Below, piece after piece: positions 44,121 to 63,396 of a DNA stretch of 64,000 nt (its first letter is position 1; each line of letters opens with the position of its first letter). Made by a program: the position numbers and the translations under genes. A model generated the notes under the pieces. That model did not search any database. It worked only from the letters and a program-made list of their open reading frames with translations, and had not been told where the DNA came from. The stretch comes from Thermoplasmata archaeon (GTDB lineage Archaea; Thermoplasmatota; Thermoplasmata; Lutacidiplasmatales; UBA184): assembly GCA_028864975.1 (NCBI GenBank), contig JAGWLG010000001.1, positions 128,001 through 192,000 of the forward strand. The letters are read 5' to 3'.

Positions 44121-44136
44121 GTGAACTCGGTTTCAC
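44121..44136. promoter_or_regulatory. Regulon operator site 1 (GTSRA-N6-TYSAC)
   Basis: GTGAA CTCGGT TTCAC; 8 nt upstream of TATATC and 46 nt before the cupredoxin ATG 44183. Confidence 0.8.
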
Positions 44137-44182
44137 TCTCGCCCTATATCCTGTTCCCAGAGTCGGTGGTCCGAGAGGGACA

Positions 44183-44827
44183 ATGAGGACGAACGAGAGC
44201 GGGACCCTACCCCGTAAGGCTACGTCTGGGAACGTCGGTTGGAGCGCGCTCGGTGCTATCGCGCTGGTGGGGGTGACCCTGTCGGTGGGCTGGTTCGCCT
44301 TTGCCGCGTTCTACGGTGTGGGCGTTGGGAATCCCGCCTCCCAGGGTGTGCCTTCCGGTGGGAACGCTCCGAGTGGACCGGTGCACATGTACCTCGCGGT
44401 CGTGACGACGCCTGGCGGGATGGACCAGTACCTCCCGGCCAACTTCTCGCTCCCCGTGAACACGGAGATTGACTTCACGATCCAGAACTACGACAACGGC
44501 ATCAACAACCTGAGCGCGTCGATCTCCACGGTCTCGGGAACCTCCGACGGCACGGAGCACGTCTCGGGTGGAGCTCTCGGCGCCCCTACGGGGGTCGTGA
44601 GCTCCCTGCCCGTGGGTGACACGTCGCACACCTTCAGCATCTTGGGCGGACCCCAGCACCTCAACGTGGTCATGCCCCCAGCCATGGGACCCAACCAGCC
44701 GACCGTGGTCACGTTCAGTGTGACCTTCACGAGCGCGGGGACCTACACTTGGGTCTGCCTCGCTCCTTGCGACCCCAACTCGATGCAAGCCCCCGGGTTC
44801 ATGAGCGGGACGATCACCGTCGGGTAG
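44183..44827 (+). CDS. Membrane-anchored cupredoxin-fold (sulfocyanin/rusticyanin-like) protein
   Basis: N-terminal TM anchor, PANFSLP...IDFTIQNYD, SHTF, GTYTWVCLAPCDPNSMQAPGFMSGTITV. Confidence 0.8.
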   Translation: MRTNESGTLPRKATSGNVGWSALGAIALVGVTLSVGWFAFAAFYGVGVGNPASQGVPSGGNAPSGPVHMYLAVVTTPGGMDQYLPANFSLPVNTEIDFTIQNYDNGINNLSASISTVSGTSDGTEHVSGGALGAPTGVVSSLPVGDTSHTFSILGGPQHLNVVMPPAMGPNQPTVVTFSVTFTSAGTYTWVCLAPCDPNSMQAPGFMSGTITVG

Positions 44828-44891
44828 GGTCCGAGCGCCTTAGCGACCCGAGGACCACGGCGTCCGGGCGACCGCGTGGCGGGCTCGAGCC

Positions 44892-46004
44892 ATGCTCGAT
44901 CTGAGGCGCCTTGTCGCCCGGACGAGGACCCTGTGGGTTCGAGACCCCAAAGGGATGTCCATCGACCTCCTGCGCGTGGGGATAGGCATCGTCTGGTCGC
45001 TGAACTTGATTTTCATCCTCGACCCGAGCAACCAGTACTTCGCGATGTTCCAGATGACGGCGGCGGGCTTCGGCCCGACCTCGGTGGGTGGGTCTGGTTT
45101 CGCAGACTTCGTGGCGAACTACCCCGTCTTCTTCGCGTGGGTGATCGCCCTGCTGACGGCCTACCTAGCGGTGGCCTTCCTGGCGGGATTCACTACCCGC
45201 CTGGCCTGCGTGATCGGGGCGCTCGCCTCCGTGGCCTTCCTGTTGACGCAGTTCTACGCGACCTTCACCCTGAGCGGCATGGGCACGGACGTCGGCCCGC
45301 ACCCGCTCTACGTCCTGATCTACCTCATCTTGTTCACTGGAGGGGCGGGGCAGTACTTCGCCATCGACCACTGGGTTTGGGCGAGCGGGAAGGCACGCTT
45401 CCCTCGCCTCTCCCGCTGGATCGCTTCGCCACGGGACCTCCCTTGCAATGCGACATGTCCCCATGCAGGACCACGACCATCTGGGGCGAGCCTGATCTCG
45501 GGGGAGCTTCCGCCCTTGGACGGCGCGAACTCCAGTCCATCCACCCCTCCCAAGGTCTCGGGCCGAGGTTGGGCCGCGTTGGGGGTCTTCCTCATCGCCG
45601 TCCTCTTGTTGGCCGCCGCGGTCGTGTCGCTCCACCCCGGGGGGAGCGCGACTCCCCCCCCCGCCACGCAGGTCTCCATCCAGGACGTCCAGTACACGCT
45701 CCTCTACCCGGGGAACGCCTCCCAGGGGGGTCTCGGCCCCGCGCACCAGGACGGATGTTTCGACTGCGCCATCGCGATCGCTCCAGGTTCCTCGGTCACG
45801 GAGCTGTTCATGGTCACCAACAACCATAGTGGCTCACCCACGACCGTCAGTGCGATCGTCGTGGGGGCCCCCTTCTCCCTCGCGGCCCCCACCGGTTGCC
45901 CGCGGACCCTTCCGGTGGGTTACATGTGGATGTTCAACATCGACTTGCGCGCTCCCGATGCACCGGGGACCTACACCGTCGCGCTCACGATCACGGTGAC
46001 CTGA
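44892..46004 (+). CDS. DoxX/DoxD-family membrane protein fused to an extra TM helix and an external CxxC domain
   Basis: LLRVGIGIVW...F...LAGFTTRLA...GTDVG...GAGQYFAIDHW (DoxX/DoxD pattern), then a TM helix and a beta-rich domain with DGCFDCA and GCP...GYMWM. Confidence 0.75.
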   Translation: MLDLRRLVARTRTLWVRDPKGMSIDLLRVGIGIVWSLNLIFILDPSNQYFAMFQMTAAGFGPTSVGGSGFADFVANYPVFFAWVIALLTAYLAVAFLAGFTTRLACVIGALASVAFLLTQFYATFTLSGMGTDVGPHPLYVLIYLILFTGGAGQYFAIDHWVWASGKARFPRLSRWIASPRDLPCNATCPHAGPRPSGASLISGELPPLDGANSSPSTPPKVSGRGWAALGVFLIAVLLLAAAVVSLHPGGSATPPPATQVSIQDVQYTLLYPGNASQGGLGPAHQDGCFDCAIAIAPGSSVTELFMVTNNHSGSPTTVSAIVVGAPFSLAAPTGCPRTLPVGYMWMFNIDLRAPDAPGTYTVALTITVT

Positions 46005-46084
46005 GGCCGCGCTGACCTCTGATAGCGCAGAGCGGGGAGATCCCTCCCGGCCTAGGGGCACGACCACCCTCGGAAGGACAGGAC

Positions 46085-46588
46085 TCACTCGCTGGTCGCG
46101 GCGCTGCTCCTTGGCACGTCGGACCGAGCTACGATCCCGACAAGGCGCCCGTCCTTGACCACAGGGAGGCGATGGAATCCGCGAGCGTCCATCCTGAGCG
46201 CGGCTTCGGTCACCTCCTCGTCGGGATCAATGCTGACCACTTCCGAGGTCATGACCTCCTCGACCCTGAGACGTCCGATCCTATCGCGAAGCACCTGGAG
46301 GGGCCCCATGGCGCTGACGGCAGTCCTCCCGAGGAGCATGTCGAGCCACTTGCGGGGGCTCTGCAGGACGAGGCCGGCGACGGCGCTCTCCACGATGTCG
46401 CGTTCGCTCAGGACACCCACCACGTTCCCTTCCGCGTCGACCACGGGTGCTCCAGAGATGTGGTGCCGACGGAGGGTTCCCGCGGCGGCGCGGAGCGTGG
46501 CCGTCGGCCGGAGGCAGATGACCTTGTCATGCATCACCGACCTCACGGGGGAGTGCCCGCGGGGCCGTGTTCGCTCCATGCTCTCCAC
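46085..46588 (-). CDS. CBS-pair protein 1
   Basis: HISGAPVVD...VVGVLSERDI and VEEVMT...FHRLPVV...LVGIVARSD. Confidence 0.9.
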   Translation of the reverse strand: MESMERTRPRGHSPVRSVMHDKVICLRPTATLRAAAGTLRRHHISGAPVVDAEGNVVGVLSERDIVESAVAGLVLQSPRKWLDMLLGRTAVSAMGPLQVLRDRIGRLRVEEVMTSEVVSIDPDEEVTEAALRMDARGFHRLPVVKDGRLVGIVARSDVPRSSAATSE

Positions 46589-46624
46589 GATCGGTGACCG
46601 CCCTGCCGGCTATTTCGACCCACA

Positions 46625-46640
46625 GTGGAGGCTCGTTCAC
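46625..46640. promoter_or_regulatory. Regulon operator site 2
   Basis: GTGGA GGCTCG TTCAC; exactly 36 nt before GTG 46588 (minus strand). Confidence 0.8.
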
Positions 46641-46686
46641 CGAGGTTGCCAGGGGGTCCGCGCGGGGTCCGTTGAAGTTCCGAGAG

Positions 46687-46702
46687 GTCAAGCCCATTCC
46701 AC
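46687..46702. promoter_or_regulatory. Regulon operator site 3
   Basis: GTCAA GCCCAT TCCAC; exactly 36 nt before ATG 46739. Confidence 0.8.
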
Positions 46703-46738
46703 CATTCTCCGAAATAGCCTCGGCCGGCTGGTGGGGCC

Positions 46739-47296
46739 ATGCATGAGAAGCTCGTCTCCGATGCCATGACCCGCCCGGTCCGATTCGTCCGGCCCGAAGA
46801 TACCCTGGCGACGGCCGCCGGAATCATGCGGGAGCACCATATCTCGGGGCTTCCCGTCCTGGACCCCGATGGCAAGCTCTGTGGCATTATCAGCGAACGC
46901 GACATTGTCAAGGAGCTGCACAAGGCAACGGGAGTGGGGTCTCCGCGAGGTCTCCTCGACATCATTCTGGAGGCTCCGAGCGTCGGAGGGGTTTCCTCCC
47001 TCGAGGCGACTCGTCGGAGGCTGCAGCATGCCCGGGTGGAGGAGGCGATGTCGGGGCGGCCAGTGACGGTCGACGCCGACGATACCTTGGAGGAGGCGAT
47101 CCGGATCTTCCGGCAGTACAGTGTGAACCGCCTGCCGGTCATGGACAAGGAGAGGATGGTGGGTATCCTCACGCGACAGGACGCCATCATCGCGCTCGCC
47201 GGTGAAGTGCGCCGAAGCGCGAACCTTCCCACACGCTTGATTCCTCAGGCACACCCAGGGCGGCCCAGGTTGGTCACTCCCTCTTCCCGAGGTTGA
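46739..47296 (+). CDS. CBS-pair protein 2
   Basis: HHISGLPVLD...GIISERDI and VNRLPVM...VGILTRQD. Confidence 0.92.
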   Translation: MHEKLVSDAMTRPVRFVRPEDTLATAAGIMREHHISGLPVLDPDGKLCGIISERDIVKELHKATGVGSPRGLLDIILEAPSVGGVSSLEATRRRLQHARVEEAMSGRPVTVDADDTLEEAIRIFRQYSVNRLPVMDKERMVGILTRQDAIIALAGEVRRSANLPTRLIPQAHPGRPRLVTPSSRG

Positions 47297-47327
47297 AGCG
47301 CTTCTCGTAGAACACGGAGGTGAAAGC

Positions 47328-47849
47328 ATGGCCAAGAACTCCCCCAGTTCCATAGTCGTCTGCGTGGACGGGTCGGCACCGGCGGAAGAAGCGTTCGAAC
47401 AGGCACTCGACCTATGTTTGAAGCTCGGGCGCCCGATGCAGGTGGTGACCGTCGTGCCTTCCGCGAACATCTACTACCTCACGGGGCCTCCTCCCGCCGT
47501 CCCGGACGAAGAACAGGTCCGCTACCACTGGGAGCTCGCAGCTCGGTACGTCGAACGCGCAAAGGCGCGGGGTGTGAAAGAGGCGGGATTCGTCGTCCTG
47601 GATGGGAACCCCGTGGACGCCATCCTGGACCACCTGGAGCGGGAGCCTATCGAGCTCTTGGTCGTGGGCGCTCGGGGACTCTCGAGGACCCAGAGGCTGC
47701 TCCTGGGCAGCGTCTCCTCCGCGCTCGTCCAGCAGGCGAAGTGCTCCATCCTGGTCGCGAAGGTCAAGGTGCGAGGGGTCTCGGCCGCGACGGACCTCGA
47801 CCGGTCTCCCCAGAAGACGAGGCGGGTCGAAGCGGCTCCCTTCGCGTGA
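47328..47849 (+). CDS. Universal stress protein (UspA family)
   Basis: IVVCVDGS...A...A...GNPVDAI...LLVVGARG...LLLGSVSSALVQQAKCSILV. SD GGAGGTGA. Confidence 0.93.
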   Translation: MAKNSPSSIVVCVDGSAPAEEAFEQALDLCLKLGRPMQVVTVVPSANIYYLTGPPPAVPDEEQVRYHWELAARYVERAKARGVKEAGFVVLDGNPVDAILDHLEREPIELLVVGARGLSRTQRLLLGSVSSALVQQAKCSILVAKVKVRGVSAATDLDRSPQKTRRVEAAPFA

Positions 47850-47892
47850 GCTGAGGCATCTGGGCCGCTGAAGATCCAACGTTCTGGGTGGC

Positions 47893-48456
47893 CTACGGCT
47901 CCGCGATGGGCCAGTGGCCCAGTAGGTCCCGCCGTGTGACGATTCCCACCAGGCGTCCGCCCTCAACCACCGGGAGGCGGTTCACCCTTCGTGCCTTCAT
48001 GCGCCGGACGGCCTCTCCCAGGGGTGCCGATGCATCGATGGTCTCAGCTGGGGAGGTCATCGCATCCTCGGCCTTGAGCGAGCGCAACCCCTCTCGGAGG
48101 TCGCGCATCGCATCCGGGCGGCTCCATGGCGAGGTCGGGAGTAGCAGATCGAGAACCTCCAGGGGACGAGAGGTCAGCCAGCGAGACCCCACCGAGTGAG
48201 CGATATCCCTCTCGCTGAGCACGCCGAGCACCTGCCCATCCAGAGCCACGACAGGTGCTCCGGAGACCCCTCCGTTGCGGAGACGCGCAAGGGCCACCGC
48301 CAGATTGTCCTGGGGTGCGATCTGCACGACCGGGACGTTCATGGCCTCCCGCACCGTGACGTACGGAAGGAGAGGAGAAGCACCGATCAAGGTCGTGGCG
48401 GTGCGAGTCCCCGCGGCTCCACGAGAGGAGCTCCGTAGGTGCGAGGCCGTCCTCAT
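47893..48456 (-). CDS. CBS-pair protein 3
   Basis: VSGAPVV...GVLSERDI and VNRLPVVEGGRLVGIVTRRD. Confidence 0.9.
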   Translation of the reverse strand: MRTASHLRSSSRGAAGTRTATTLIGASPLLPYVTVREAMNVPVVQIAPQDNLAVALARLRNGGVSGAPVVALDGQVLGVLSERDIAHSVGSRWLTSRPLEVLDLLLPTSPWSRPDAMRDLREGLRSLKAEDAMTSPAETIDASAPLGEAVRRMKARRVNRLPVVEGGRLVGIVTRRDLLGHWPIAEP

Positions 48457-49010
48457 GCGGGTATCACCGCCTGCACCCTCCCCCGGGGTGCCGCGCGCGC
48501 AGCCTCCGTCTCCCTCGCCCCCGAGAGCGCCCGAATCAGGTCGGTCCTGGTGATGATCCCGACGAGCCTTCCGTTCGAGTCGACCACGGGCAGACGATTG
48601 ATCCGCCGTCCCACCATCAGCTCAGCGGCTTCCCGGATCGAACCGCCCGCGTTGATGGTTACCGCCGGTGAGGTCATGCAGGACCCGACCCGAAGATGCC
48701 GCAACCGATTGATCACGAGCTGGAAGGGGTCTCGGCTGTCGTCACGGGGAGCGCGCAGGAACATCTCCAAGAACCCTGGTAGGGAGTCAACGCCTTTCAC
48801 TGGAGACAGGCTACGAGCCACGTCGATCTCGCTCACGACCGCCACCAGCTTCCCGTCGGGATCCAGGACGGGAAACCCCGCGATCCGAAGCGCCTTCATC
48901 CGAGCGACGACGAGGTCGAGAGTGTCGGAAACTAGGACCGTCGTCACGTTCCCGCTCATGTACCGATCTACCCGTTCGACGAGGACGCTCGAGCCCGATT
49001 CGCTCTGCAT
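48453..49010 (-). CDS. CBS-pair protein 4
   Basis: ATG 49010 with SD GGTGAGGAG; IAGFPVLD...VVSEID and INRLPVVD...VGIITRTD. Confidence 0.9.
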   Translation of the reverse strand: MQSESGSSVLVERVDRYMSGNVTTVLVSDTLDLVVARMKALRIAGFPVLDPDGKLVAVVSEIDVARSLSPVKGVDSLPGFLEMFLRAPRDDSRDPFQLVINRLRHLRVGSCMTSPAVTINAGGSIREAAELMVGRRINRLPVVDSNGRLVGIITRTDLIRALSGARETEAARAAPRGRVQAVIPA

Positions 49011-49069
49011 GTTGCTCCTCACCTTCCTCCCACGTACCTGGAGACCGAGACCCCGTGCCCACCGATTCC

Positions 49070-49447
49070 TTACGCTCCTATGGGCTGATTGACGACTACG
49101 TTGGTCAGGTCGAAGATCTCCTCCAGGAACCTCGGCACGTTCAAGGGGAGATGGATCACCCGGAGCATCCCGTGAGAGCGAAGGTGGGCATCGCGCGAGC
49201 CGACCACCACCAGGGGAAGGTCCGACAAGCTCCCGTTGATCCACCCCTGGACCGCAGGGCTATAGTGACCGTTCGAAGCGACCACGAGCAACATGGTCTC
49301 TTGGCCGCGAGATCTCGAAACGAGCGGCCGTGCTTCGCTCAGGTCCCGGGCGCAGCAGACCCGATATCCCTCCGCTTCGAAGAGGTCGGTCAGCCCTGCC
49401 CCTAGCGAGGGGCTCTCGTTGATGATCACCAGCGTGGCTCTCGGCAT
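49070..49447 (-). CDS. Stand-alone pseudo-receiver (REC-like) protein lacking the phosphoacceptor Asp
   Basis: TLVIINES...LTDLFEAEGYRV..A.DLSEA...LLVVASN...LPLVVVG...IHLPLNV has REC topology with the catalytic D and K absent. Confidence 0.6.
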   Translation of the reverse strand: MPRATLVIINESPSLGAGLTDLFEAEGYRVCCARDLSEARPLVSRSRGQETMLLVVASNGHYSPAVQGWINGSLSDLPLVVVGSRDAHLRSHGMLRVIHLPLNVPRFLEEIFDLTNVVVNQPIGA

Positions 49448-49483
49448 CCAAACCACCACCCCGGAGGGTGAGAAGAACACCTC

Positions 49484-49499
49484 GTCAATCCGAATCCAC
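49484..49499. promoter_or_regulatory. Regulon operator site 4
   Basis: GTCAA TCCGAA TCCAC; exactly 36 nt before ATG 49447 (minus strand). Confidence 0.8.
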
Positions 49500-49566
49500 C
49501 TCAGCGGGGGCTGCCCACCCTCCCCGCCCCCCCTGCTACCCTGTCGGGAGGCTCTATGGGGGAACC

Positions 49567-51054
49567 ATGGTTACCTCCACAGCCGTGACGGGGTCGGAGC
49601 GTCTCCAACTGGTGGAGCGCCTGCTAGCTGAGGCTCCATGCGGCGTGGCGGTCGTCCAAGAACCCTGCGAGCTCGTCTGGGCCAACGAGAGGTTCATCTC
49701 GGTCACCGGCCGACCTCGGACCCACATGCCCGCCGACCTTCGGCAAGTCGAGCGTCTTCAGGGAGGCCCTGTCGTGAGAGCCCTTGAGCAGGCGCTCAAG
49801 GAGGGGCGGTCCGTGACCATTCCCGACGTTCTTCTCGTGTCCCGCCCGTCGGTGAGGTACGCGGACATCCACATCTGGCCCCTTCCAGGACCGACCAACG
49901 AACCTCGGATGGTCGTGGCGACGCTCTACGACCAGACCGAGCGCGTCGCGGACCGGGCCCGAGCGCGCCTCTTCTACGAGTCGTTCCTCACTTCGTCGAA
50001 CGCGATCGAGGTCACGGATCGCTCCGGGGTCCTCGTCGACGTGAACCCTGCGTTCGAACGCGTGTATGGGTACACTCGGGCGGAATGCATCGGGAAGAAG
50101 CCCAGCCTCGTTCGGAGCAGGAAGACCCCTCCCGAGCTCTACGAGAAGATGTGGAAAGACCTGACAGACCCGACGATCGGCCACTGGTCCGGAGAGATCG
50201 CCAACCGCGACCGGCGGGGGCATGACCGCCAGGTCTTCCTAACCATCACCGCCATCCGCGATGAGTTGGGGGAGATCACCCACTATCTCGGCGTAGCCGT
50301 GGACCTCACGCAGCAAAAGGCGTGGGAGCAAGGCGCAGCGCACGCCGAGCGTCTCGCATCCCTGGGAAGGGTCGCCGCGGGCGTTGCCCATGAGATCAAC
50401 ACTCCCCTCGCGAACATTCTTCTCGTGGCGGAGAGCATCCGTCGGAGGACCCAAGACCCCTGGATGATCTCCCGGGTCGCTGCGATGTCCTCCCAGGTCG
50501 AGGTCGCGGCCAAGATCGTCCGGAGCCTATTGGAGTTCTCACGAAGGAGCGAGCCACACTTCCAGGAGCTCGATCTCGTCAGGGTCGCCAAGGACGCGGT
50601 AGAGTTCCTGCAGGGGAAGCAGTCCGCCGACGTCGAGGTGTCGGAGCGCTATCCCTCCGGACCTGTCGCCATCCACGGTGACCGTGGCCAGCTCATTCAG
50701 GTTCTGACGAACATCCTCAATAACGCGTACGAAGCGATCGAGGGCGCAGGACGGATCACGCTCGAGGTCCGCGAGGACCATGGCTCCGCGGTCGTGATCA
50801 TTTCCGACTCCGGGAAGGGCATCGCCCCGGAGGCGCTCCCGCACATCTTCGAGCCGTTCTTCACGACCAAGGAGGAGGGAAAAGGCACAGGGCTTGGGCT
50901 GGCGATCTGTCACGGGATCGTTCAGTCGCACCAGGGGACCATTCTCGCGGAGAACATCCCCCAAGGAGGGGCGGCGTTCACCATACGGATCCCGTTGAGA
51001 ACGCCTCCCCCTCCGGGCTCGACGTTGGACGAACCCCCGGCGATCCATCGGTAG
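49567..51054 (+). CDS. Cytoplasmic PAS-PAS sensor histidine kinase
   Basis: Two PAS-like domains, H-box AGVAHEINTPL, N-box QVLTNILNNA, DSGKGI, IFEPFFTTK and GTGLGL; no TM segment. Start ATG 49567. Confidence 0.95.
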   Translation: MVTSTAVTGSERLQLVERLLAEAPCGVAVVQEPCELVWANERFISVTGRPRTHMPADLRQVERLQGGPVVRALEQALKEGRSVTIPDVLLVSRPSVRYADIHIWPLPGPTNEPRMVVATLYDQTERVADRARARLFYESFLTSSNAIEVTDRSGVLVDVNPAFERVYGYTRAECIGKKPSLVRSRKTPPELYEKMWKDLTDPTIGHWSGEIANRDRRGHDRQVFLTITAIRDELGEITHYLGVAVDLTQQKAWEQGAAHAERLASLGRVAAGVAHEINTPLANILLVAESIRRRTQDPWMISRVAAMSSQVEVAAKIVRSLLEFSRRSEPHFQELDLVRVAKDAVEFLQGKQSADVEVSERYPSGPVAIHGDRGQLIQVLTNILNNAYEAIEGAGRITLEVREDHGSAVVIISDSGKGIAPEALPHIFEPFFTTKEEGKGTGLGLAICHGIVQSHQGTILAENIPQGGAAFTIRIPLRTPPPPGSTLDEPPAIHR

Positions 51055-51059
51055 GGAGA

Positions 51060-51083
51060 GACGAGCGGGGACCTCCGCTCGTC
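51060..51083 (+). terminator. Perfect 9-bp hairpin after the kinase stop
   Basis: GACGAGCGG-GGACCT-CCGCTCGTC. No U-tract follows, so its function is uncertain. Confidence 0.35.
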
Positions 51084-51096
51084 AATTCGGATTGAC
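51081..51096. promoter_or_regulatory. Regulon operator site 5 (perfect palindrome; upstream of the response regulator)
   Basis: GTCAAT-TCGG-ATTGAC; 8 nt upstream of GAAATA and exactly 36 nt before ATG 51133. Confidence 0.85.
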
Positions 51097-51132
51097 CCCG
51101 CGAGGAAATACGCGTGAACTATCCTTCTCTTG

Positions 51133-52305: not shown

Positions 52306-52336
52306 TCCTCCGAGCTCGCCCGGCCCTCCCTCGGGC

Positions 52337-52352: not shown

Positions 52353-52397
52353 TCACGGCTCAAATCGTGCTCCCGGCGATGTCCTAGGCGGGGCTAT

Positions 52398-55685: not shown

Positions 55686-55710
55686 GGGGGCCGCTCCCTT
55701 AGGCCAGAAA

Positions 55711-56376
55711 CTAGTCCGCGGAGGGTCCGATCTCCGACGCCCACTCGAGGACCAGGATCTCGGCGGGGATGGAAGGAACAGCTTGAGAACGCATCTTCCG
55801 GAGCAGTCGCAGTTGTTCGTCCTTCGAAAGCCACTCGCTGAGGTGGACATGGAGCAGTTCTTCCTCGCGTCCTAGATGTCGCTCGATCCGATCCGCCTCG
55901 GCCCGGAAAAGGTGGGCGAGCTCGGAAGCACGAGCCGGGGAGACCAGCCGGTCCGGCTCGTCGTCGGGGATGGAGAGCTCAGAGACCCGCTTCTGGAACA
56001 GGCGGGCCCTCGGATGTTCCGCCTGGCACTCCAAGAGGCCATCGAAGATGCGGGGGTCGGTCTTCGGCTGGAGCACCGCGTTCACGAGCTCCTCCTGCGC
56101 GTAGTGGAAACCGAGCACGTAATCCCCGTGGATCTCCACAGCGCGCCGGATGGCTTGACGGCTCAATCCCAGCTCCGCGGGGATACGGTCCGCCGTTCGC
56201 CGGATGCAACTGGCGAGCAGGACCATGAGGGTGTTCTGTCGGTAGAGCTCGAACGCCAGGTCGCTCGAGGAGGAGAGCAGGGGTGGACGCACGGCACGTC
56301 GGTAGGGCGGAGGCAGGGACGCGACGCTGGATGGCTGCGCAAGGAGGGCGCCGGAGGGTGGACGCTCGGGGGTCAT
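55711..56376 (-). CDS. Hemerythrin-like (HHE cation-binding) protein
   Basis: FHYAQEE, AEHPR and RHLGREEE match HxxxE/EH/HxxxE di-iron motifs. ATG 56376. Confidence 0.65.
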   Translation of the reverse strand: MTPERPPSGALLAQPSSVASLPPPYRRAVRPPLLSSSSDLAFELYRQNTLMVLLASCIRRTADRIPAELGLSRQAIRRAVEIHGDYVLGFHYAQEELVNAVLQPKTDPRIFDGLLECQAEHPRARLFQKRVSELSIPDDEPDRLVSPARASELAHLFRAEADRIERHLGREEELLHVHLSEWLSKDEQLRLLRKMRSQAVPSIPAEILVLEWASEIGPSAD

Positions 56377-56412
56377 GGGTGTCGAGGGGCCGGAAGTGGA
56401 TGTCAAAGGTCC

Positions 56413-56428
56413 GTGGAATCGAATCCAC
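56413..56428. promoter_or_regulatory. Regulon operator site 7
   Basis: GTGGA ATCGAA TCCAC; exactly 36 nt before ATG 56376 (minus strand). Confidence 0.82.
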
Positions 56429-56488
56429 GTGGGAGACATCCTGCCGCCCCGGGAAGGGCCTCAAGGCTAGAAGGATCGCCCGCGGGCT

Positions 56489-58114
56489 TCAGATGGAGGG
56501 GCCACCACGCGCCGGGGCGCCGCCCCCCGAGCCGCCCTTCCCCGTCGACTTCGACGCAATGGTGTCGTTGACACGCAGCACCATGACGGCCGCCTCGGTC
56601 GCGCTCAGGATCGCTTGGCGTCCGACCCTCACGGGCTCGACCGCCACGCCGGACATGTCCGCGATGCGAGCGGCGAGAACGTCCACGCCGGCATCGTGCT
56701 CCCCGGCTCGGTGCCGACGCTTCAGTTCGATCAGCGCGCCGACCTTGTCCATCCCAGCGTTCTCTGCGAGGGTCATCGGGAGCACCTCGAGAGCGCCCGC
56801 GAAGGCATGGACGGCCATTTGTTCACGGCCTCCGAGGGTGTTCGCGTAGTCCCGAAGGTCGGAGGAGATCTCCACCGCGGAAGCGCCAGCCCCAGTCACC
56901 ACCGCGCCGTCTTCGAGCGCGAGTCCCACCGTGGAAATGGCGTCAACGAGCGAGCGCTCGGCTTCGTCCACCACGTGCTCGGTCCCCCCGCGGACCAGCA
57001 GGCTCACGGCCCTGGCGTTCCGGCATCCCAGAACGAAGGTCATGCGGTCCTCGCCCACCTTGCGCTCTTCCACGAGGGCCGCGTGCCCCAGGGCCCCGGG
57101 CTCGAGTTCCGCCCATCGGCTCACAAGGTCTCCCCCCGTGGCCTTCGAGAGCAGCTCCAGGTCCGACCGCTTGATCCTGCTCACCGCGAGCACCTTGTTA
57201 CGCGCGAGATAGAGCTGGGCCGCGTCGTCGATGCCCTTCTCGCAAAGCACGACATTCGCGCCAGATCGAAGGACCTGATCGACCATCTCCCGGACCATAC
57301 GGTCCTCCTCTGAGAGATAGGCCTCGATCTCGTTCGGGGCGGTGATGCGGACCTCGGTCGTCGTTTCCGCCTTACGCACCTCGAGCGCGGACTCCATGAG
57401 CGCGATGCGCGCATCTTGGATCCTACGTGGCATCCCAGGATGAGCTACGTCCTTGTCCAGGATGAGCCCCTCGACAAGCTCGGTGTCCGCAAGATCGCCC
57501 CCCTGCTTCTTCACGAGCTGGATGTTCTTGCGGTCGCACCGAAGCCTTCCGCCCTCCTTTTCGACCACAGCGCGGACCGCGCGAACGGTGAGCACGGAAA
57601 GGAAGGAACGGTCCGCGGAGACCCCCTTGGACATCATCGAGGTCATGGCCACCTTGCGCAGGGCCTCGGTGTCGGCCGCCTCGAGGGTCCTCTGGCCTTG
57701 GGAGAGGACGCGGGTGGCACGGTCCGCGGCCAGTCGGTATCCTTGGGTGATGATCGTTGGGTGGATCCCCTGGTCCAGGAGCTCTTCCGCTGCCCGCAGG
57801 AGCTCTCCCGCAAGGATGACCGAGGTCTTCGTGCCGTCGCCGCACTCCTCGTCCTGGGTCTTCGCCACCTCGACCAACATCTTCGCTGCGGGGTGTTCGA
57901 CCTCCATGAACTTCAGGATGGTCGCCCCATCGTTCGTGATGACGATGTCACCGGAAGGTTGGACGAGCATCTTGTCCATCCCTCTTGGACCGAGTGTCGT
58001 TCTCAAGGTCTCTGCGACAGAGCGGGCGGCCTCGATGTTCGCGTGCTGGGCGTCCTTTCCGGTCTCTCGGGTCGTCCCTTCTCGTAGTAGGATCACAGGG
58101 GTTCCGGCGAGCAT
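56489..58114 (-). CDS. ths: Thermosome subunit (group II chaperonin)
   Basis: TTLGPRGMDKML, ITNDGATIL, HPAAKML, GDGTKTS, helical protrusion EVRITAP, RGGTEHVVDEAERSL and GAGASAVE. Confidence 0.96.
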   Translation of the reverse strand: MLAGTPVILLREGTTRETGKDAQHANIEAARSVAETLRTTLGPRGMDKMLVQPSGDIVITNDGATILKFMEVEHPAAKMLVEVAKTQDEECGDGTKTSVILAGELLRAAEELLDQGIHPTIITQGYRLAADRATRVLSQGQRTLEAADTEALRKVAMTSMMSKGVSADRSFLSVLTVRAVRAVVEKEGGRLRCDRKNIQLVKKQGGDLADTELVEGLILDKDVAHPGMPRRIQDARIALMESALEVRKAETTTEVRITAPNEIEAYLSEEDRMVREMVDQVLRSGANVVLCEKGIDDAAQLYLARNKVLAVSRIKRSDLELLSKATGGDLVSRWAELEPGALGHAALVEERKVGEDRMTFVLGCRNARAVSLLVRGGTEHVVDEAERSLVDAISTVGLALEDGAVVTGAGASAVEISSDLRDYANTLGGREQMAVHAFAGALEVLPMTLAENAGMDKVGALIELKRRHRAGEHDAGVDVLAARIADMSGVAVEPVRVGRQAILSATEAAVMVLRVNDTIASKSTGKGGSGGGAPARGGPSI

Positions 58115-58161
58115 CTTCGCGCCTCATGGCGGGATGGCCTCGCGTCCCGGATAAGGAGCCC

Positions 58162-58177
58162 GTCGAACCCGGTTCAC
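58162..58177. promoter_or_regulatory. Regulon operator site 8
   Basis: GTCGA ACCCGG TTCAC; on the minus strand 8 nt upstream of TATCCG and 47 nt before ATG 58114. Confidence 0.75.
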
Positions 58178-58204
58178 GAAGCCGATGGGGCGGACCCGAG
58201 GTCC

Positions 58205-59137
58205 CTACGCGACGTAGGTGAGCCAGTCCTCATGGCGAGGGGAGCGGCCTCGAAGGCAGTCGTCGTAGGCGCCCTGCAGTCTCCGGGTGACGGGGTAGGA
58301 CCCCTCGCCGATCGGTCGCCCATCCACCTCGCGGATAGGAGTGATCCCGGCAGCGGTGCCGCTGAAGAAGAGCTCGTCGGCCGTGAAGAGCTCCTCGCGG
58401 GTGAAATCTACGCGGCGGAACTCGATCCCTTCCTCCTGAGCGAGCTGAATGACGGTGTCGCGCGTAACCCCACGAAGTATCCCTGAGCTGGCGGGGGGTG
58501 TGCTAAGCACCTTGTCCCGGACCCGGAAGACGTTCTCCCCTGGCCCCTCCGCGACCATGCCTGAGGAATTGAGCAGGATCGCCTCGTCATAGCCTGAGGC
58601 GCTCGCCTCCATCTTGGCGAGAGCGCCGTTCGCGTAGTTGGCCGCGCACTTGGCCTGGGGAGGGAGCGACCGCGCATCGTTACGCACCCAGCTCGACACG
58701 GTGGCCCGGACTCCCTTCTCCTGCCCCTCCTTCCCCAGGTAGGCACCCCACTCCCACATCGCTACCGCCACTTGGATCGGACAGTTCGTGGGGTCGAGCC
58801 CCATCTCGCCGTAGCCTGAGAATGCGATGGGTCGGAGGTACGCCTCAGGGACGCCGTTTGCGCGAACCAAGTCCTTGCAGGCAACGTGCAGCTCTTCTGA
58901 CGAGAAGGGGAGCTTCATACGATAGATCTTGGCGCTGTTGAGGAAGCGTTCGACATGCTCCCGCAGTCGGAAGATGGCAGGACCGTTCAGGGCACGGTGG
59001 CTTCGGATCCCCTCGAAAATGGCGTAGCCGTAGTGCAGACCGTGGGTGAGCACGTGCACCTTGGCGGCAGGCCACTCCACGAGCCTGCCGTCCAGCCAGA
59101 TCTTCTTGAGAGGATGGATCGCGACCACAGTTGGCAC
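58205..59137 (-). CDS. ilvE: Branched-chain amino acid aminotransferase
   Basis: IWLDG...VHVLTHGLHYG..IFEG, FRLREHVERF, AK.AANY, EGPGENVF and LRGVTRDT. GTG start 59137 or 59128; canonical TTTAAG box at 59153-59158. Confidence 0.95.
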   Translation of the reverse strand: MPTVVAIHPLKKIWLDGRLVEWPAAKVHVLTHGLHYGYAIFEGIRSHRALNGPAIFRLREHVERFLNSAKIYRMKLPFSSEELHVACKDLVRANGVPEAYLRPIAFSGYGEMGLDPTNCPIQVAVAMWEWGAYLGKEGQEKGVRATVSSWVRNDARSLPPQAKCAANYANGALAKMEASASGYDEAILLNSSGMVAEGPGENVFRVRDKVLSTPPASSGILRGVTRDTVIQLAQEEGIEFRRVDFTREELFTADELFFSGTAAGITPIREVDGRPIGEGSYPVTRRLQGAYDDCLRGRSPRHEDWLTYVA

Positions 59138-59164
59138 CTGGGACCCCCGCCCCTTAAACTCGCG

Positions 59165-59180
59165 GTCAAGCACCCCACAC
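59165..59180. promoter_or_regulatory. Regulon operator site 9 (one intact half-site)
   Basis: GTCAA GCACCC CACAC; exactly 36 nt before ATG 59217. Confidence 0.5.
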
Positions 59181-59216
59181 CATCGGCTCATCTTTCCTAG
59201 GCGCAGAGGGACTTCC

Positions 59217-60581
59217 ATGTGCGCCGAGCGAGTGGTGATCATGGGCGCGGCGGGCCGGGACTTCCACAATTTCAACACGCTCTTCCGGGGTCGCCGCCAG
59301 TACGAGGTTGTCGCCTTCACCGCCGCTCAGATCCCGAACATCACGGGACGGTGCTACCCGGCCAGCTTGGCAGGACCGGGGTATCCGGAAGGCATCCCCA
59401 TCGTCCCGGAGGAGGAGCTTCCCGGTTTGGTGCATCGAGAAGGTGTGGACCTCGTCGTCCTCTCTTACTCGGACCTGCGGCATGAGTCGGTCATGCACCA
59501 AGCCTCCATCGCACTCGCCGCCGGGGGGAGTTTCCTCCTGCCTGGTCCTCGCCAGACCATGCTCCGGTCGAGACTTCCAGTGATCAGTGTCGGGGCGGTG
59601 CGGACGGGTTGTGGGAAGAGTCCCGTGAGCCGGTTCATCTCGCGGTTGCTCGCCTGGCACGGGCTCCGGGTGGCCGTCGTCCGCCACCCCATGCCCTATG
59701 GCGACTTGGAGAAACAGGCCGTCCAACGATTCTCGAAGATCGGTGACCTTGCTCGCGCGCACTGCACGATCGAAGAGCGAGAAGAGTACGAGCCCCACAT
59801 CCGAGAGGGCTCGGTGGTCTGGGCCGGAGTGGATTACGAGGAGATCCTGCGCCGCGCCGAGCGGGAGTCCGACGTCATCCTTTGGGATGGAGGGAACAAC
59901 GACCTCCCCTTCTTCGCCCCCGACCTCAACATCGTCCTGGCGGACCCGCTGCGGGCAGGGCACGAGGTTGCCTACCATCCCGGAGAAGCGAACTTCCGGA
60001 TGGCCGACGTTCTTATCGTGAACAAGGTCGGATCCGCTGAACCTCGCGCGATCGCCCTGGTCGAGCGTCACGCCGCGGCGCTCAATCCCCGGGCGAGGTT
60101 GATCCGCGGGGACCTCAAGATCCGGGCTCGAGGAGCAGAGCGGCTTCGCGGAAAGAGGGTCATGGTCGTGGAGGACGGCCCGACCGTGACCCACGGAGGG
60201 ATGGATTACGGCGCGGGGTGGCTCTTGGCAAGGTCGGTCGGAGCGCGTCCCGTCGACCCGCGTCGCTCTGCGGCAGGGAGTCTCATCCCGGTTCTCCGTG
60301 CGCATCCCCGCCTCCGACGCGTGCTCCCGGCCATGGGATACTCTCTGGAGCAAGTGCACGACCTCGAGGAGACCATACGCCGCTCGAACGCCGAGGCCGT
60401 GGTGGACGGAAGCCCGGTTGATCTGGGCCGAATTCTTCGAGTTCCGCAGCCGATCGTCCCCGTGAAGTATGAGTACGAGGATATGGGAGGACAGCTCGCA
60501 GAAACGGTGCAAGGGTTCCTGCGGAGAAGCGGTCTTCTCAGCCGAGAGGTTCCCTCGGCCATCCCTCTCCCCGCCCGCTAA
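59217..60581 (+). CDS. Cyclic 2,3-diphosphoglycerate synthetase-like P-loop protein
   Basis: VVIMGAAGRDFHNFN, VAFTAAQIP.I.GR.YP, AVRTGCGKS, RHPMPYGDL, CTIEEREEYEPHI, WDGGNND and EDGPTVTHGGM. Confidence 0.88.
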   Translation: MCAERVVIMGAAGRDFHNFNTLFRGRRQYEVVAFTAAQIPNITGRCYPASLAGPGYPEGIPIVPEEELPGLVHREGVDLVVLSYSDLRHESVMHQASIALAAGGSFLLPGPRQTMLRSRLPVISVGAVRTGCGKSPVSRFISRLLAWHGLRVAVVRHPMPYGDLEKQAVQRFSKIGDLARAHCTIEEREEYEPHIREGSVVWAGVDYEEILRRAERESDVILWDGGNNDLPFFAPDLNIVLADPLRAGHEVAYHPGEANFRMADVLIVNKVGSAEPRAIALVERHAAALNPRARLIRGDLKIRARGAERLRGKRVMVVEDGPTVTHGGMDYGAGWLLARSVGARPVDPRRSAAGSLIPVLRAHPRLRRVLPAMGYSLEQVHDLEETIRRSNAEAVVDGSPVDLGRILRVPQPIVPVKYEYEDMGGQLAETVQGFLRRSGLLSREVPSAIPLPAR

Positions 60582-60647
60582 GGTCTAGCGCTCCGCCCCG
60601 CGCGATAGGAGCGTTGCTGTTCGCGGGCTTCCTCCGGAGGGTGCGGG

Positions 60648-60663
60648 GTGAAACGCGGTCCAC
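60648..60663. promoter_or_regulatory. Regulon operator site 10
   Basis: GTGAA ACGCGG TCCAC; 38 nt before ATG 60702. Confidence 0.75.
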
Positions 60664-60701
60664 GGAGAGGTTACTCCCCTGCGGGCGGCTGCCGCGGTCG
60701 T

Positions 60702-61181
60702 ATGCAGCAGCTCGCCCCCCCTCCGGGGGTCCTGGTCTCGCACGCCATGACCGAACAGGTCGTGACCGTGCGGCCGGACGCCACGCTCTGGGACGCCACG
60801 CGTCTGCTGCGGGAGGCCGATATCTCCGGGCTCCCGGTGGTGGACCGGTCCGGTCGGCTCGTTGGGATCCTCAGCGAGAAGGACATCGCGCGCGCGGTGG
60901 GCGAGGTCGCCGGTCAGAGGAATGTGAGCCGGTTGCTCGACCTCCTCGTCTCGGGGAGGGGTACCGGGGGGAACCTCGGCGACCTCGCATCCGAGCTCCT
61001 CCAGAACACCAAGGTGTCAGAAGTGATGAATCACGACCCGGTCGTGACCTCTCCTTCGACCCCGCTCGACACCGCGGCGAAGATCCTGTTGGAACGGCAT
61101 ATCAATCGGCTTCCGGTGGTGAAGGGCGGCCACCTCGTGGGGATCCTCACCCGGCATGACATCCTTGCCTCCTCGGTCTGA
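60702..61181 (+). CDS. CBS-pair protein 5
   Basis: ISGLPVVD...VGILSEKDI and INRLPVV...VGILTRHDI. Confidence 0.9.
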   Translation: MQQLAPPPGVLVSHAMTEQVVTVRPDATLWDATRLLREADISGLPVVDRSGRLVGILSEKDIARAVGEVAGQRNVSRLLDLLVSGRGTGGNLGDLASELLQNTKVSEVMNHDPVVTSPSTPLDTAAKILLERHINRLPVVKGGHLVGILTRHDILASSV

Positions 61182-61250
61182 GCCTTCTCGCTCCGGGGCG
61201 TGGAGATCGCACTGTCGTCACGGTGATCCCATGGGTCAGCCGATGACATG

Positions 61251-61266
61251 GTGGAATCAAATCGAC
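61251..61266. promoter_or_regulatory. Regulon operator site 11
   Basis: GTGGA ATCAAA TCGAC; 8 nt upstream of CTAATC and 43 nt before ATG 61310. Confidence 0.72.
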
Positions 61267-61309
61267 CGAGCCAACTAATCGAGCCCCGGCGTACACCCAG
61301 CGAGATCCC

Positions 61310-61759
61310 ATGCAAGCCCGGAGCCGTCTATCGGCGGTCCACACAGAGCTAGGCTACGCCCAACATGAGCTCCCAATGGGAGAGTTCGAGGACCTTTCGC
61401 GCCCACGGGCGACCATAAGACTGGAGGCGGACGGGGTCATCGAGCACTTCGAGAAGAGAAAGGCCCTTCGACCGTCCGACGAACCTGAGGATCCGCTCGG
61501 CCGCAAGGTTCTTTTCATCTGCAAGGAGCGTCCGAAGTACGCTGTCCACACCCTGCTGGCCCCCCAGGTCCCGCAGGAGCGCTGGAAGGCGTGGCTCGAC
61601 CGATACGAAGTGTGGGCCGAGCTGGTGGAGGTCCATCCTGAGTTCGGCCACCGAGACGCACGTGGTCGGCGGGTTCAGGTGAAGCACCACGAGCCTGTGT
61701 CGGTGGAGGTCAGGACGGGGACGCTAGAGGCCAAGGACGCCTCTACGGCGTTCGGTTAG
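61310..61759 (+). CDS. Hypothetical protein
   Basis: 149-aa ORF with protein-like composition, preceded by an operator site; no family recognised. Confidence 0.55.
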   Translation: MQARSRLSAVHTELGYAQHELPMGEFEDLSRPRATIRLEADGVIEHFEKRKALRPSDEPEDPLGRKVLFICKERPKYAVHTLLAPQVPQERWKAWLDRYEVWAELVEVHPEFGHRDARGRRVQVKHHEPVSVEVRTGTLEAKDASTAFG

Positions 61760-61834
61760 ACCCCGTGGCCGAATGCTCCCCCCTTGGCCGCTCCCTGTTC
61801 CTTGTGCGCCCGGACGCGCGCTCCACACTAGCGG

Positions 61835-62566
61835 TCAGACGCTCTGCGGGGTCACGCGCGACCCCCGGAGGTGAATGTCGAACCAGCCTCGTGTGCGTCG
61901 TTCGACCTCTTCCATGGCCCCCGGTTCCTCGAAGAGGTGGGTCGCGCGTGGGACGATCACGAGCTCGCTCGAGGACGGTAGGGTCCGGAGCGTTGCGCGG
62001 TTCACTTCGACAATGCTCTCGTCACGCTCTCCGACGATGAGGAGGGTGGGAGCCCGGACACGCTGAACAAGCTCCTCGGGGGCAAGATCGGTCCGTCCAC
62101 CGCGCAGGACCATGGCCGAGACCTCGAGCGGAAAGGCGGCCGCCCCGCGAAGAGCGGCCGCAGCTCCTGTGCTTGCACCGTACAACCCCAAGGGAAGCCG
62201 GGAGAGTCGGGGCTGTTCGGAGGACCAAGTTATCGCCCGGACCAGCCGCTCGGTGAGAAGCCGAAGGTCGAACCGGAAGTTCGCCAATCTCTCATCTTCC
62301 TTGGCCTCTTCCGGGGTTAGCAGGTCGAGGAGGAGAGTTGCGATGCGCACCCGGTTGAGCGCGAGCGCGACCCTCCGGTTCCGAGGGCTCTTCCGCCCGC
62401 TCCCGCTCCCATGAGCGAAGATCACGAGTCCCCTGGAACTTCGCGGCACGGCCAGGTCCGCGAGAATGTTGCGCCCCGGAAGGACGGTGATCCGCACGGG
62501 CTCAGGATCCGCCATCGGAGGGGGAACGAGCAAGGCTCCCAGGTTTGGACGAGCGGCATCAGCCAT
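61835..62566 (-). CDS. Dienelactone-hydrolase-family alpha/beta hydrolase
   Basis: VIFAHGSGSGRKSPRN, LLDLLT..E, GLYGASTGAAAAL nucleophile elbow, PTLLIVGERD and HLFEE. ATG 62566 overlaps the upstream PRTase stop. Confidence 0.88.
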   Translation of the reverse strand: MADAARPNLGALLVPPPMADPEPVRITVLPGRNILADLAVPRSSRGLVIFAHGSGSGRKSPRNRRVALALNRVRIATLLLDLLTPEEAKEDERLANFRFDLRLLTERLVRAITWSSEQPRLSRLPLGLYGASTGAAAALRGAAAFPLEVSAMVLRGGRTDLAPEELVQRVRAPTLLIVGERDESIVEVNRATLRTLPSSSELVIVPRATHLFEEPGAMEEVERRTRGWFDIHLRGSRVTPQSV

Positions 62567-63242
62567 CGCTCTCACCATCCGTCGAGGACCGCGCTTCGGA
62601 TCGTCGCAAGAGCGCGACCACCTCCTCATCTGACACGGGGTCGAAGTTCCGGAAGAACTGACCGACCGCCGCGAAGTCCGGTGGGGTCGAAAGGCACACG
62701 ACCTCGTCGGACCACCGCCGGAGCGCGCGAAGGGTCTCTGCTGGCGCAACCCCGATGGCGACCACGAGCTTCCGAGCTCCGCGTGAACGGAGCGCGGTCA
62801 CCGCCGCGCGGACCGTATTGCCCGTGGCGACCCCGTCATCCACGATGAGGACCGTCTGCCGGGCGACGTCGGGGAAACGTGCACCGCTGCGGTACACCTG
62901 GACCCTTCGGGAGACTTCGAGCTCCTCCGCTTCGAGCACCCCGTACAGGTCCTTCCTCACGATCCCGAGGTTCGAGATCATTTCCTCATCCCATTGGGGC
63001 GGCGCGCCCTCGACCAGGGCACCGATCCCGAACTCGGGGTTCTGAGGGTGGCCGAGCTTGCGAACGATCAGGACGTCGAGAGGGAGCTCCAAGGCCGTGG
63101 CGACCTCGAACCCTACGACAACTCCCCCTCTTGGGAGGGCGATGACCCTGGCTCCGGACCTGCGGTAGGGGTGGAGGCGCGCGGCGAGCCGACGTCCTAC
63201 CTCGGCACGGTCCTGGAAGAGCGGTTCTGGCTCCGCGAACAT
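62559..63242 (-). CDS. Phosphoribosyltransferase-like protein
   Basis: FQDRAEVGRRLA...ALPRGGV...IVRKLGHPQNPE and VLIVDDGVATG. ATG 63242 (track TTG 63275). Confidence 0.9.
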   Translation of the reverse strand: MFAEPEPLFQDRAEVGRRLAARLHPYRRSGARVIALPRGGVVVGFEVATALELPLDVLIVRKLGHPQNPEFGIGALVEGAPPQWDEEMISNLGIVRKDLYGVLEAEELEVSRRVQVYRSGARFPDVARQTVLIVDDGVATGNTVRAAVTALRSRGARKLVVAIGVAPAETLRALRRWSDEVVCLSTPPDFAAVGQFFRNFDPVSDEEVVALLRRSEARSSTDGESDG

Positions 63243-63282
63243 CGCAGTTCCAAGCAGGCGCCGCCGGGCATTCAAGTGGCCC

Positions 63283-63298
63283 GTGGATATGAGTCCAC
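63283..63298. promoter_or_regulatory. Regulon operator site 12
   Basis: GTGGA TATGAG TCCAC; 40 nt before ATG 63242 (minus strand). Confidence 0.78.
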
Positions 63299-63380
63299 TA
63301 CCGACGACACCGTTGCCTCCCTACGTGGGGATGCCCGCCACCCAGGGGCAGGGTCCCGTGGAGATGCCCCGAGGAGTCGG

Positions 63381-63396
63381 GTGAACCGAAGTTGAG
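63381..63396. promoter_or_regulatory. Regulon operator site 13 (1 mismatch)
   Basis: GTGAA CCGAAG TTGAG; 8 nt upstream of TATCCG and 45 nt before ATG 63442. Confidence 0.65.

Follow-up and report, generated by a model that had tools for sequence, protein, structure and literature searches.

Characterized archaeal transcription factor sites upstream of the B recognition element (BRE) activate transcription by recruiting TFB/TBP (PMC5512572; TrmBL1, PMC4706686), and the sites of characterized archaeal repressors lie over or downstream of the promoter (PMC5512572, PMC4706686). This report concerns a palindrome, GTSRA-N6-TYSAC, that recurs before the genes of an approximately 21-kb island of stress genes in an uncultured Thermoplasmata archaeon, together with the sensor kinase and the response regulator encoded in that island. 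The DNA analyzed, hereafter the window, is a 64-kb stretch (C32:128001-192000) from a 3.61-Mb assembly of 67% G+C. The described upstream activator sites of EarA at fla, TFB-RF1 at pf1089, Ptr2, and TrmBL1 (TGM) are likewise short, often palindromic, and located beside BRE/TATA (PMC5512572, PMC4706686). Unlike those sites, the island palindrome serves approximately 15 promoters with one rigid spacing in a single island. It also differs in sequence, and its presumed binder is a phosphorylatable response regulator, whereas EarA, TFB-RF1, Ptr2, and TrmBL1 are one-component factors.

DNA-binding response regulators are rare in archaea, where two-component signaling proceeds mostly via protein-protein contacts; the census that reports this names no defined regulon for the few such regulators studied and lists REC-DUF835 proteins in Thermoplasmata with no DNA-binding role given (PMC5847659). 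FilR1 of Methanothrix and LtrR of Methanococcoides are, like the system proposed here, two-component and directly transcriptional (PMC5847659). They are organized as wHTH-DUF1724-REC and HTH-REC, respectively, whereas the island regulator carries, in this order, the receiver (REC), a DUF835-like domain, and an ArsR-type winged helix (wHTH). Searches of the literature on the motif and on Thermoplasmata two-component regulons found no description. Members of the ArsR/SmtB family act as dimers on inverted repeats. The ArsR/SmtB regulators SmtB (8qkf), BigR (3pqj), NolR (4omy), and RosR (6ez1) share the fold of the C-terminal domain of the island regulator; unlike in these proteins, the island wHTH follows a receiver and a DUF835-like domain in one polypeptide.

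The mycobacterial DosR/DevR system resembles the island in being two-component, in having a palindromic box before many small stress genes, and in its autoregulation. DosR is a NarL-type regulator served by GAF-haem kinases, it recognizes a different 20-bp box, and its regulon has a phosphoribosyltransferase (PRTase)-type member. These DosR-type traits of regulator and kinase are absent from the island, whose regulator has an ArsR-type wHTH output and whose kinase bears PAS domains without GAF. The likeness in stress content, which is one of content only, extends to Usp, CBS-pair proteins (Rv2626c), and alpha-crystallin/Hsp20, the last being found here in relatives. DosR promoters are bacterial, in contrast to the archaeal TATA/BRE promoters of the island, and the relation is one of functional analogy, not homology. 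Rv2626c, Usp, and acr are listed as DosR-regulon or related proteins (PMC2442614). The island is of a familiar kind, namely a transcription factor regulon with an autoregulated two-component system; what is new is the regulator architecture, the rigid BRE-adjacent placement, and the archaeal setting.

Occurrence of the palindrome

Exact matches to GTSRA-N6-TYSAC number 10 in the window, and every one lies within 44121-63298; an earlier note on this DNA had listed precisely these positions, and none besides was found in the 64 kb. Its three near matches are also real but unequal, with one mismatch each at 52337 and 63381 and two at 59165, which retains one good half-site. The half-sites of the motif are one helical turn apart. 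The sites and the genes that they head are given below, with distances after the motif marked by a plus sign.

44121-44136, plus strand: site GTGAACTCGGTTTCAC, heads the cupredoxin-like gene and a DoxD-like membrane gene; CTATAT at +8, ATG 44183 at +46
46625-46640, minus strand: site, heads CBS-pair gene 46085-46579; GAAATA at +9, ATG at +45
46687-46702, plus strand: site, heads CBS-pair gene 46739 and Usp 47328; GAAATA at +9, ATG at +36
49484-49499, minus strand: site in the divergent spacer between kinase and small open reading frame (ORF), heads 49447-49070 and two CBS genes; ATG at +36
51081-51096, plus strand: site GTCAATTCGGATTGAC, response-regulator promoter; GAAATA at +9, ATG 51133 at +36
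52337-52352, plus strand: near site with one mismatch, heads PRTase-like gene 52398-53111; TCAAAT at +8
56413-56428, minus strand: site, heads the operon 56376-55711, 55850-54846, and, as its last gene, formate-tetrahydrofolate ligase (FTHFS); ATG at +36
58162-58177, minus strand: site, heads thermosome gene 58114-56489; CCTTAT at about +6, ATG at +47
59165-59180, no single strand: weak site with one good half-site between divergent genes; start codon 36 nt off on each side
60648-60663, plus strand: site, heads CBS-pair gene 60702-61181; ATG at +38
61251-61266, plus strand: site, heads unknown 149-aa gene 61310-61759; AACTAA at +7, ATG at +43
63283-63298, minus strand: site, heads PRTase-like gene 63242-62559 and alpha/beta hydrolase ORF 61835-62749; TTGAAT at +8, ATG at +40
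63381-63396, plus strand: near site with one mismatch, heads CBS-pair gene 63442-63981; ACCTAT at +6, ATG at +45

The window holds no exact match to the left of 44121, as the earlier note had said of the left-hand promoters, and its other promoters are also without the motif. Dinucleotide shuffles of the window gave a mean of 1.09 exact matches and a maximum of 5, with 10 or more in 0 of 100 shuffles; equal frequency in shuffled sequence, which the note had named as a ground for giving up the motif, did not occur. The whole genome contains 91 exact matches, approximately 1.6 per 64 kb, which corresponds to an expectation of approximately 0.5 in a 19.2-kb stretch, and the majority of them are intragenic GTCGA..TCGAC words. 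The excess over chance claimed earlier is upheld, and only the chance figure itself (0.6) was slightly low, as the present values are 1.1-1.6.

A weight matrix built from the island sites was used to rank matches across the genome, and the top six places were taken by island sites. The best score, 22.6 bits, belongs to a 14th site, GTGAAATCGGATTCAC, at the window-equivalent position 64832, which is 832 nt beyond the window end. Of the near matches, those at 52337 and 63381 scored 12.2 and 12.7 bits, respectively, and that at 59165 scored only 3.9 bits. In all, the island has approximately 15 promoters driving approximately 25 genes. A promoter-layout test, consisting of an A/T-rich hexamer after the motif and the start of a coding ORF at +30 to +50, was passed by 11 of 11 exact island sites, versus 9 of 80 exact matches elsewhere and 6.4% of random genome positions. 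Because a genome scan allowing one mismatch barely exceeded background (8.1% promoter-like versus 6.4% at random positions), the regulon was not extended with loose matches; beyond the island, a few sites look real, upstream of thioredoxin, another CBS protein, and some unknowns. An Rfam scan of the window returned no match, and the sites are therefore not part of a known RNA.

By this motif, the U32, chorismate mutase, and benzoyl-CoA clusters do not belong to the regulon. The spacer 65269-65331 contains no match of at least 7 bits, and the only match before the reductase cluster, 8.6 bits at 70582, is wrongly positioned; the nearby site at 64832 belongs to the HTH_10 gene.

Promoter architecture

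When the 15 promoters are oriented toward their genes, the motif occupies positions 1-16, followed by a 7-nt G/C-rich spacer at the place of the BRE and by a TATA-like box, TnAWAT, at 24-29 (T24 in 9, A26 in 12, A28 in 9, and T29 in 11 of 15). This fixed order agrees with the placement just upstream of BRE/TATA that had been put forward earlier. Genes in this high-GC DNA were called from codon statistics and homology. Each site has a gene start ahead of it in at least one direction, in line with the earlier placement upstream of transcription-unit heads. The start codon lies 34-48 nt after the motif and exactly 36 nt after it (position 53) at six promoters, namely those of 46687, 49484 (minus), 51081, 56413 (minus), and 59165 in both directions. 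The earlier count of six sites at exactly 36 nt is thus correct for promoters, which belong to five sites, and the remainder lie at 38-48 nt.

Across the genome, the A/T content upstream of well-called genes peaks at -30 to -26 relative to the ATG, which implies that many mRNAs are leaderless and that the island TATA-like boxes stand at the usual TATA place of the genome. Since many mRNAs are leaderless, the motif is placed at about -52 to -37, beside the BRE place, with transcription start sites predicted from the genome-wide peak. Short leaders are implied for promoters with the start codon at +43 to +48, in which purine-rich Shine-Dalgarno-like stretches can be seen by eye. The motif overlaps the TATA-like box in 0 of 15 promoters; in the promoters of this genome (G000) it lies upstream of the TATA box and adjacent to the BRE, and the TATA-like offset in relatives is similar.

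Directly next to the palindrome stands a further word, CTGACCGGT or its complement, at the cupredoxin-like promoter (44111-44120) and on both flanks of the 64832 site (HTH_10). Closely similar flanking words occur at orthologous promoters of same-genus relatives (ACCGGTGAG in L031/L032 and ACCTGTCAG in L065/L066). The flanking word CTGACCGGT could represent an additional half-site, or a second factor could bind there.

Conservation in relatives

Full-length orthologs of the response regulator are present in 26 of 36 same-family genomes, and outside the family, only REC matches were found. In a comparison of 20-kb regulator neighborhoods from 20 relatives, the kinase-regulator pair recurs together with several island genes, and 16 of the 20 regulator loci have a site, with copies standing at the promoter of the regulator itself and at its neighbors. 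In relatives, the family core, GTCAA-N6-TTGAC, was found at the same distance (+35 to +47) before orthologous genes, in as many as 10 genomes from other genera. Among the orthologs with such a site are those of the kinase-adjacent small ORF (eight relatives from several genera), the regulator, and the CBS, cupredoxin-like, PRTase-like, aminotransferase IV, FTHFS, and Usp genes. In the promoters of relatives, sequence is retained in the arms and in the TATA-like box and has drifted in the inner six bases and the flanks. Perfect sites of relatives passed the strict promoter test in 25 of 57 cases, versus 6.4% of random positions, and they add genes for Hsp20 (twice), another thermosome, OsmC, a P-type ATPase, B12-binding proteins, a POR subunit, and HTH_10.

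Individual sites are conserved as follows. The 44121 site is kept before the cupredoxin-like orthologs in L031, L032, and L043; the ortholog of CBS-pair gene 46085-46579 in L031/L032 has a one-mismatch site at +36, and the orthologs of 46739/47328 in L031-L033 have exact sites at +36/+47. The spacer between the kinase and the small ORF contains a site at +36 to +39 in L031-33, L035, L038, L046, L048, and L049. The copy at 51081, the only one in the island that is perfect to the family consensus, has counterparts in the regulator promoters of relatives at +36 (L037), +39 (L043), and +40/41 (L031/32), and a site directly 3' of the regulator gene is found in L031-33, L039, L045, L047, and L119. 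Orthologs of the 56413 operon in L031-33 have exact sites at +36, the thermosome gene in G025 has a perfect site at +44, and the aminotransferase IV ortholog has one at +38 in G006 and at +47 in G019.

The palindrome immediately adjoins the BRE, and it could be asked whether it is non-regulatory, that is, a chance word, the remnant of a repeat element, or a basal promoter element such as an extended BRE for a TFB paralog. Such an origin is extremely improbable, given 10 copies against 1.1 expected, all of them intergenic, arms that are conserved across genera while the inner 6 nt vary, and the lack of the motif in other promoters of the window; moreover, the motif is symmetric and used in both orientations, unlike the directional BRE. 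To judge from these patterns, the palindrome is almost certainly a real, conserved cis-regulatory site.

The kinase and the response regulator

49567-51054, plus strand: cytoplasmic sensor kinase, PAS-PAS-HisKA-HATPase, from domain matches
51133-52305, plus strand: response regulator with REC, DUF835-like alpha/beta domain, and ArsR-type winged helix, the proposed binder

The kinase contains HisKA at residues 266-328, with the phospho-acceptor motif AHEINTPL read in the translation, and HATPase at 371-478. The solved structures nearest to its second PAS domain are those of flavin-binding MmoS (3ewk), NifL (2gj3), and Aer (8dik) and LOV-FixL chimeras. Its orthologs lie within the 20-kb neighborhood of the regulator in relatives, often directly adjoining it.

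Domain matches and a structural model give the order of the regulator domains as REC first and wHTH last. The receiver has the full set of phospho-acceptor residues: D53, D55, and K147 are invariant among 23 orthologs, D54 is nearly so, and D97 and T125 are at least 90% conserved. The output domain matches Pfam HTH_20, HTH_5, and DUF7347 above their cut-offs, and the closest folds to the C-terminal domain, with Z scores of 12.4-13.5, include SmtB (8qkf, 13.5), BigR (3pqj, 13.3), and haloarchaeal RosR (6ez1, 12.9). The folded domains are confident in AlphaFold models. In 8 of 23 orthologs, the middle domain gives a sub-threshold match to DUF835 (best E value 3e-4), and no Pfam match is obtained for this part of the island protein even at an E value of 5. 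One database homolog has a precomputed PF05763 match, the model shows an alpha/beta domain at 177-290, and fold matches for this part are dominated by REC or wHTH domains. The family has more than 100 members in metagenome-assembled genomes (MAGs) of Thermoplasmata. The database call for the regulator is 344 aa, homologs are mostly 342-360 aa, and the first 46 codons of the frame (51133-51270) are Pro/Ala-rich and disordered in the model, with pLDDT below 50. Translation may therefore begin at about 51271, 46 codons after 51133, leaving a leader of approximately 140 nt; this makes the leaderless +36 of the regulator uncertain and leaves the motif-TATA geometry unaffected.

In G001 and G002, the regulator promoters (L031 10633-10688 and L032 9270-9325) contain two tandem palindromes, one upstream of the TATA-like box and one between this box and the start codon, an arrangement that suggests positive plus negative autoregulation. 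A weak echo of this arrangement is found at window position 51114-51129.

Candidate binding proteins

The island response regulator probably binds the site, as the distribution of perfect copies among genomes indicates. Orthologs of the regulator have two types of recognition helix, D-S/T-P-K ("SPK") and D-T-S-K with a one-residue wing insertion ("TSK"), and perfect copies are distributed as follows.

SPK-type regulator: 78 perfect copies in 25 genomes
TSK-type regulator: 1 perfect copy in 5 genomes
No regulator: 2 perfect copies in 11 genomes
Reversed-pattern control: 12 copies in 41 genomes, approximately 0.3 per genome

This contrast repeats within genus g7 and is less clean in g5 and g6, where some SPK-type genomes have no perfect site. 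In five genomes, the regulator status had not been examined before the sites were counted: G064 (11 sites) and G062 (5 sites) have an SPK regulator with adjoining sites, the motif-free G061 has no regulator, and G063 and G007 have the regulator with 1 and 0 perfect sites, respectively. The TSK subtype occurs in L016, L018, L025, L027, and L013 (G013, G012, G032, G009, and G035), whose genomes have no GTCAA palindrome; a search of the TSK-type genomes for a different palindrome found none that recurs.

Several observations weigh against the assignment to the response regulator. Seven SPK-type genomes (G007, G010, G023, G027, G030, G034, and G063) have 0-1 perfect sites. Related genomes are not independent, and the co-occurrence counts overstate the support, which is therefore good but not decisive. 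The counts also track a homolog of a second protein, and the gene for this protein owns the best site of the genome. It is a 256-aa protein at window-equivalent 64015-64785 on the minus strand (L051:2015-2785), with a C-terminal HTH_10 domain (PF04967, 4.8e-17) and a Cys-rich N-terminal part.

This HTH_10 (Bat/DmsR-type) protein could itself bind the palindrome and autoregulate, with the response regulator merely its target. The 22.6-bit site in its own promoter is conserved before its orthologs in three same-genus genomes, the HTH_10 gene of G019 is also preceded by a perfect site, and 72 perfect sites occur in 21 genomes bearing a homolog versus 9 in 20 without. True orthologs (52-75% identity), however, are confined to the same genus; other genera have only paralogs of 28-38% identity, with an upstream site in 0 of 8 loci examined. 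Furthermore, G016, G021, and G034, which have no homolog at 1e-10, keep the site of the kinase/regulator locus at +36 to +39, while G004, G009, G012, and G035, which have a homolog and no SPK-type regulator, share 1 perfect site across the four genomes. Binding by the HTH_10 protein is accordingly improbable, and the protein is probably a second-tier regulator of the island. An attempt to exclude it by absence failed, as HTH_10 domains were present in all five genomes tested.

A slightly smaller chance is given to another factor, either an unannotated small protein of the island or one encoded elsewhere in the genome. The evidence from co-occurrence is correlative, the island proteins at 44892, 54846, 55711, 59217, and 61310 have no family assignment, and that at 55711-56376 shows a faint HTH_11 match (E value 0.07). 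On the other hand, in the 20 neighborhoods no unknown recurs beside the regulator across genera except the small ORF, which has no DNA-binding match, and in most genera the regulator is the only DNA-binding protein found beside the sites. Geometry, conservation, subtype tracking, and the dimeric wHTH fold favor the response regulator, as the earlier note had proposed, although the note missed the HTH_10 candidate.

Direction of control

The site is likely to act as an activator site, as the motif geometry fits activation because characterized archaeal sites upstream of the BRE activate. Three points count against this direction: the shared spacer lacks a TATA-like box toward the kinase, a site abutting the BRE could equally hinder TFB, and the second site in the G001/G002 regulator promoter, which follows the TATA box and precedes the start codon, looks repressive. 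The same regulator might then be mainly a repressor or serve a dual-function operator, in which a dimer at the BRE blocks TFB and phosphorylation or a signal relieves the block. This would suit the 7 nt that separate the end of the motif from the TATA box, as a footprint would overlap the BRE, as well as the second site in G001/G002 and the match to the fold of ArsR/SmtB proteins, which are classically repressors. It is nevertheless unlikely, because characterized archaeal sites located upstream of BRE/TATA are activating (PMC5512572, PMC4706686), none of the 15 promoters has a motif that overlaps its TATA-like box, and the bidirectional site 59165, which has a start at +36 in each direction, is compatible with recruitment on either face.

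Proposed mechanism and signal

With the response regulator as binder and activation as the direction of control, a possible mechanism can be proposed. A dimer of the REC/DUF835-like/ArsR-type wHTH regulator would bind the palindrome, and the adjacent cytoplasmic PAS kinase would phosphorylate the regulator on Asp97. The flavin-type (NifL/MmoS/Aer) second PAS domain suggests that the input could be the redox state or oxygen supply. The bound dimer may then help to recruit TFB/TBP to the island promoters, by which the regulator would switch on its own gene and a stress set comprising the CBS-pair, Usp, thermosome, PRTase-like, FTHFS, cupredoxin-like, and HTH_10 secondary regulator genes. In relatives, Hsp20, OsmC, and POR would be added to this set. 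With moderate confidence, the palindrome is therefore read as the activator operator of the island regulator in a PAS-kinase-driven, DosR-like regulon of low oxygen or stress.

Whether the regulon responds to redox or oxygen limitation appears evenly balanced. This signal is read from PAS similarity and gene content, and the chaperone targets would fit heat or general stress too, which counts against it. The named homologs of the regulator come from "Thermoplasmata" and "Candidatus Lutacidiplasmatales" MAGs. The Lutacidiplasmatales have been described as facultative anaerobes of waterlogged acid soils, and the paper describing them leaves two-component systems unmentioned (PMC9287336). A family-wide pathway, in which a flavin-PAS kinase phosphorylates a REC-DUF835-like-wHTH regulator that docks at approximately -44.5, beside the BRE, and activates a dormancy-like low-oxygen regulon in soil Thermoplasmata, is proposed only tentatively.

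If the mechanism is correct, the island would represent a functional analog of DosRS in archaea, assembled from unrelated components, and its response-regulator family would be the first in archaea for which an operator is defined and a regulon is conserved between genera. Since the family comes with a precise operator, a rigid promoter geometry, and a target set conserved across genera, two recombinant proteins plus a few oligonucleotides could suffice to test direct two-component control of transcription in archaea. The approximately 15 promoters also form a natural set for studying the geometry between activator and TFB/TBP, and the regulon offers a handle on the possible response of uncultured soil and peat Thermoplasmata to oxygen loss.

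Other genes of the island

44183-49447, both strands: left target block, with cupredoxin-like and DoxD-like genes, four CBS-pair genes, Usp, and the small conserved ORF
52398-63981, both strands: right target block, with two PRTase-like genes, FTHFS, thermosome, aminotransferase IV, a 454-aa protein, two CBS-pair genes, alpha/beta hydrolase, and unknowns

The six CBS-pair proteins of the island are encoded at 46085 (minus), 46739 (plus), 47893 (minus), 48453 (minus), 60702 (plus), and 63442 (plus). The 454-aa protein has a faint P-loop-family match, and the alpha/beta hydrolase is of the dienelactone type. The small ORF at 49070-49447 on the minus strand encodes 125 aa and, in relatives, invariably diverges from the kinase gene and has the palindrome in front of it. 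It was considered as a receiver and rejected because the matches were too weak (NCBIfam E value 0.003; hhalign probability 7%), and the stretch with the acceptor Asp is apparently missing.

The PRTase-like paralogs 52398-53111 (plus) and 62559-63242 (minus) both belong to the regulon, and in relatives one is always found directly after the regulator gene. They faintly match PyrR and GfcR, which are regulators of the PRTase type, and the wHTH of the response regulator shows a faint match to the Pfam family "wHTH-PRTase associated". The first gene of the FTHFS operon, 55711-56376 on the minus strand, encodes the protein with the faint HTH_11 match; this protein also has a faint hemerythrin match (E value 0.09), and O2 or iron sensing is a possible function.

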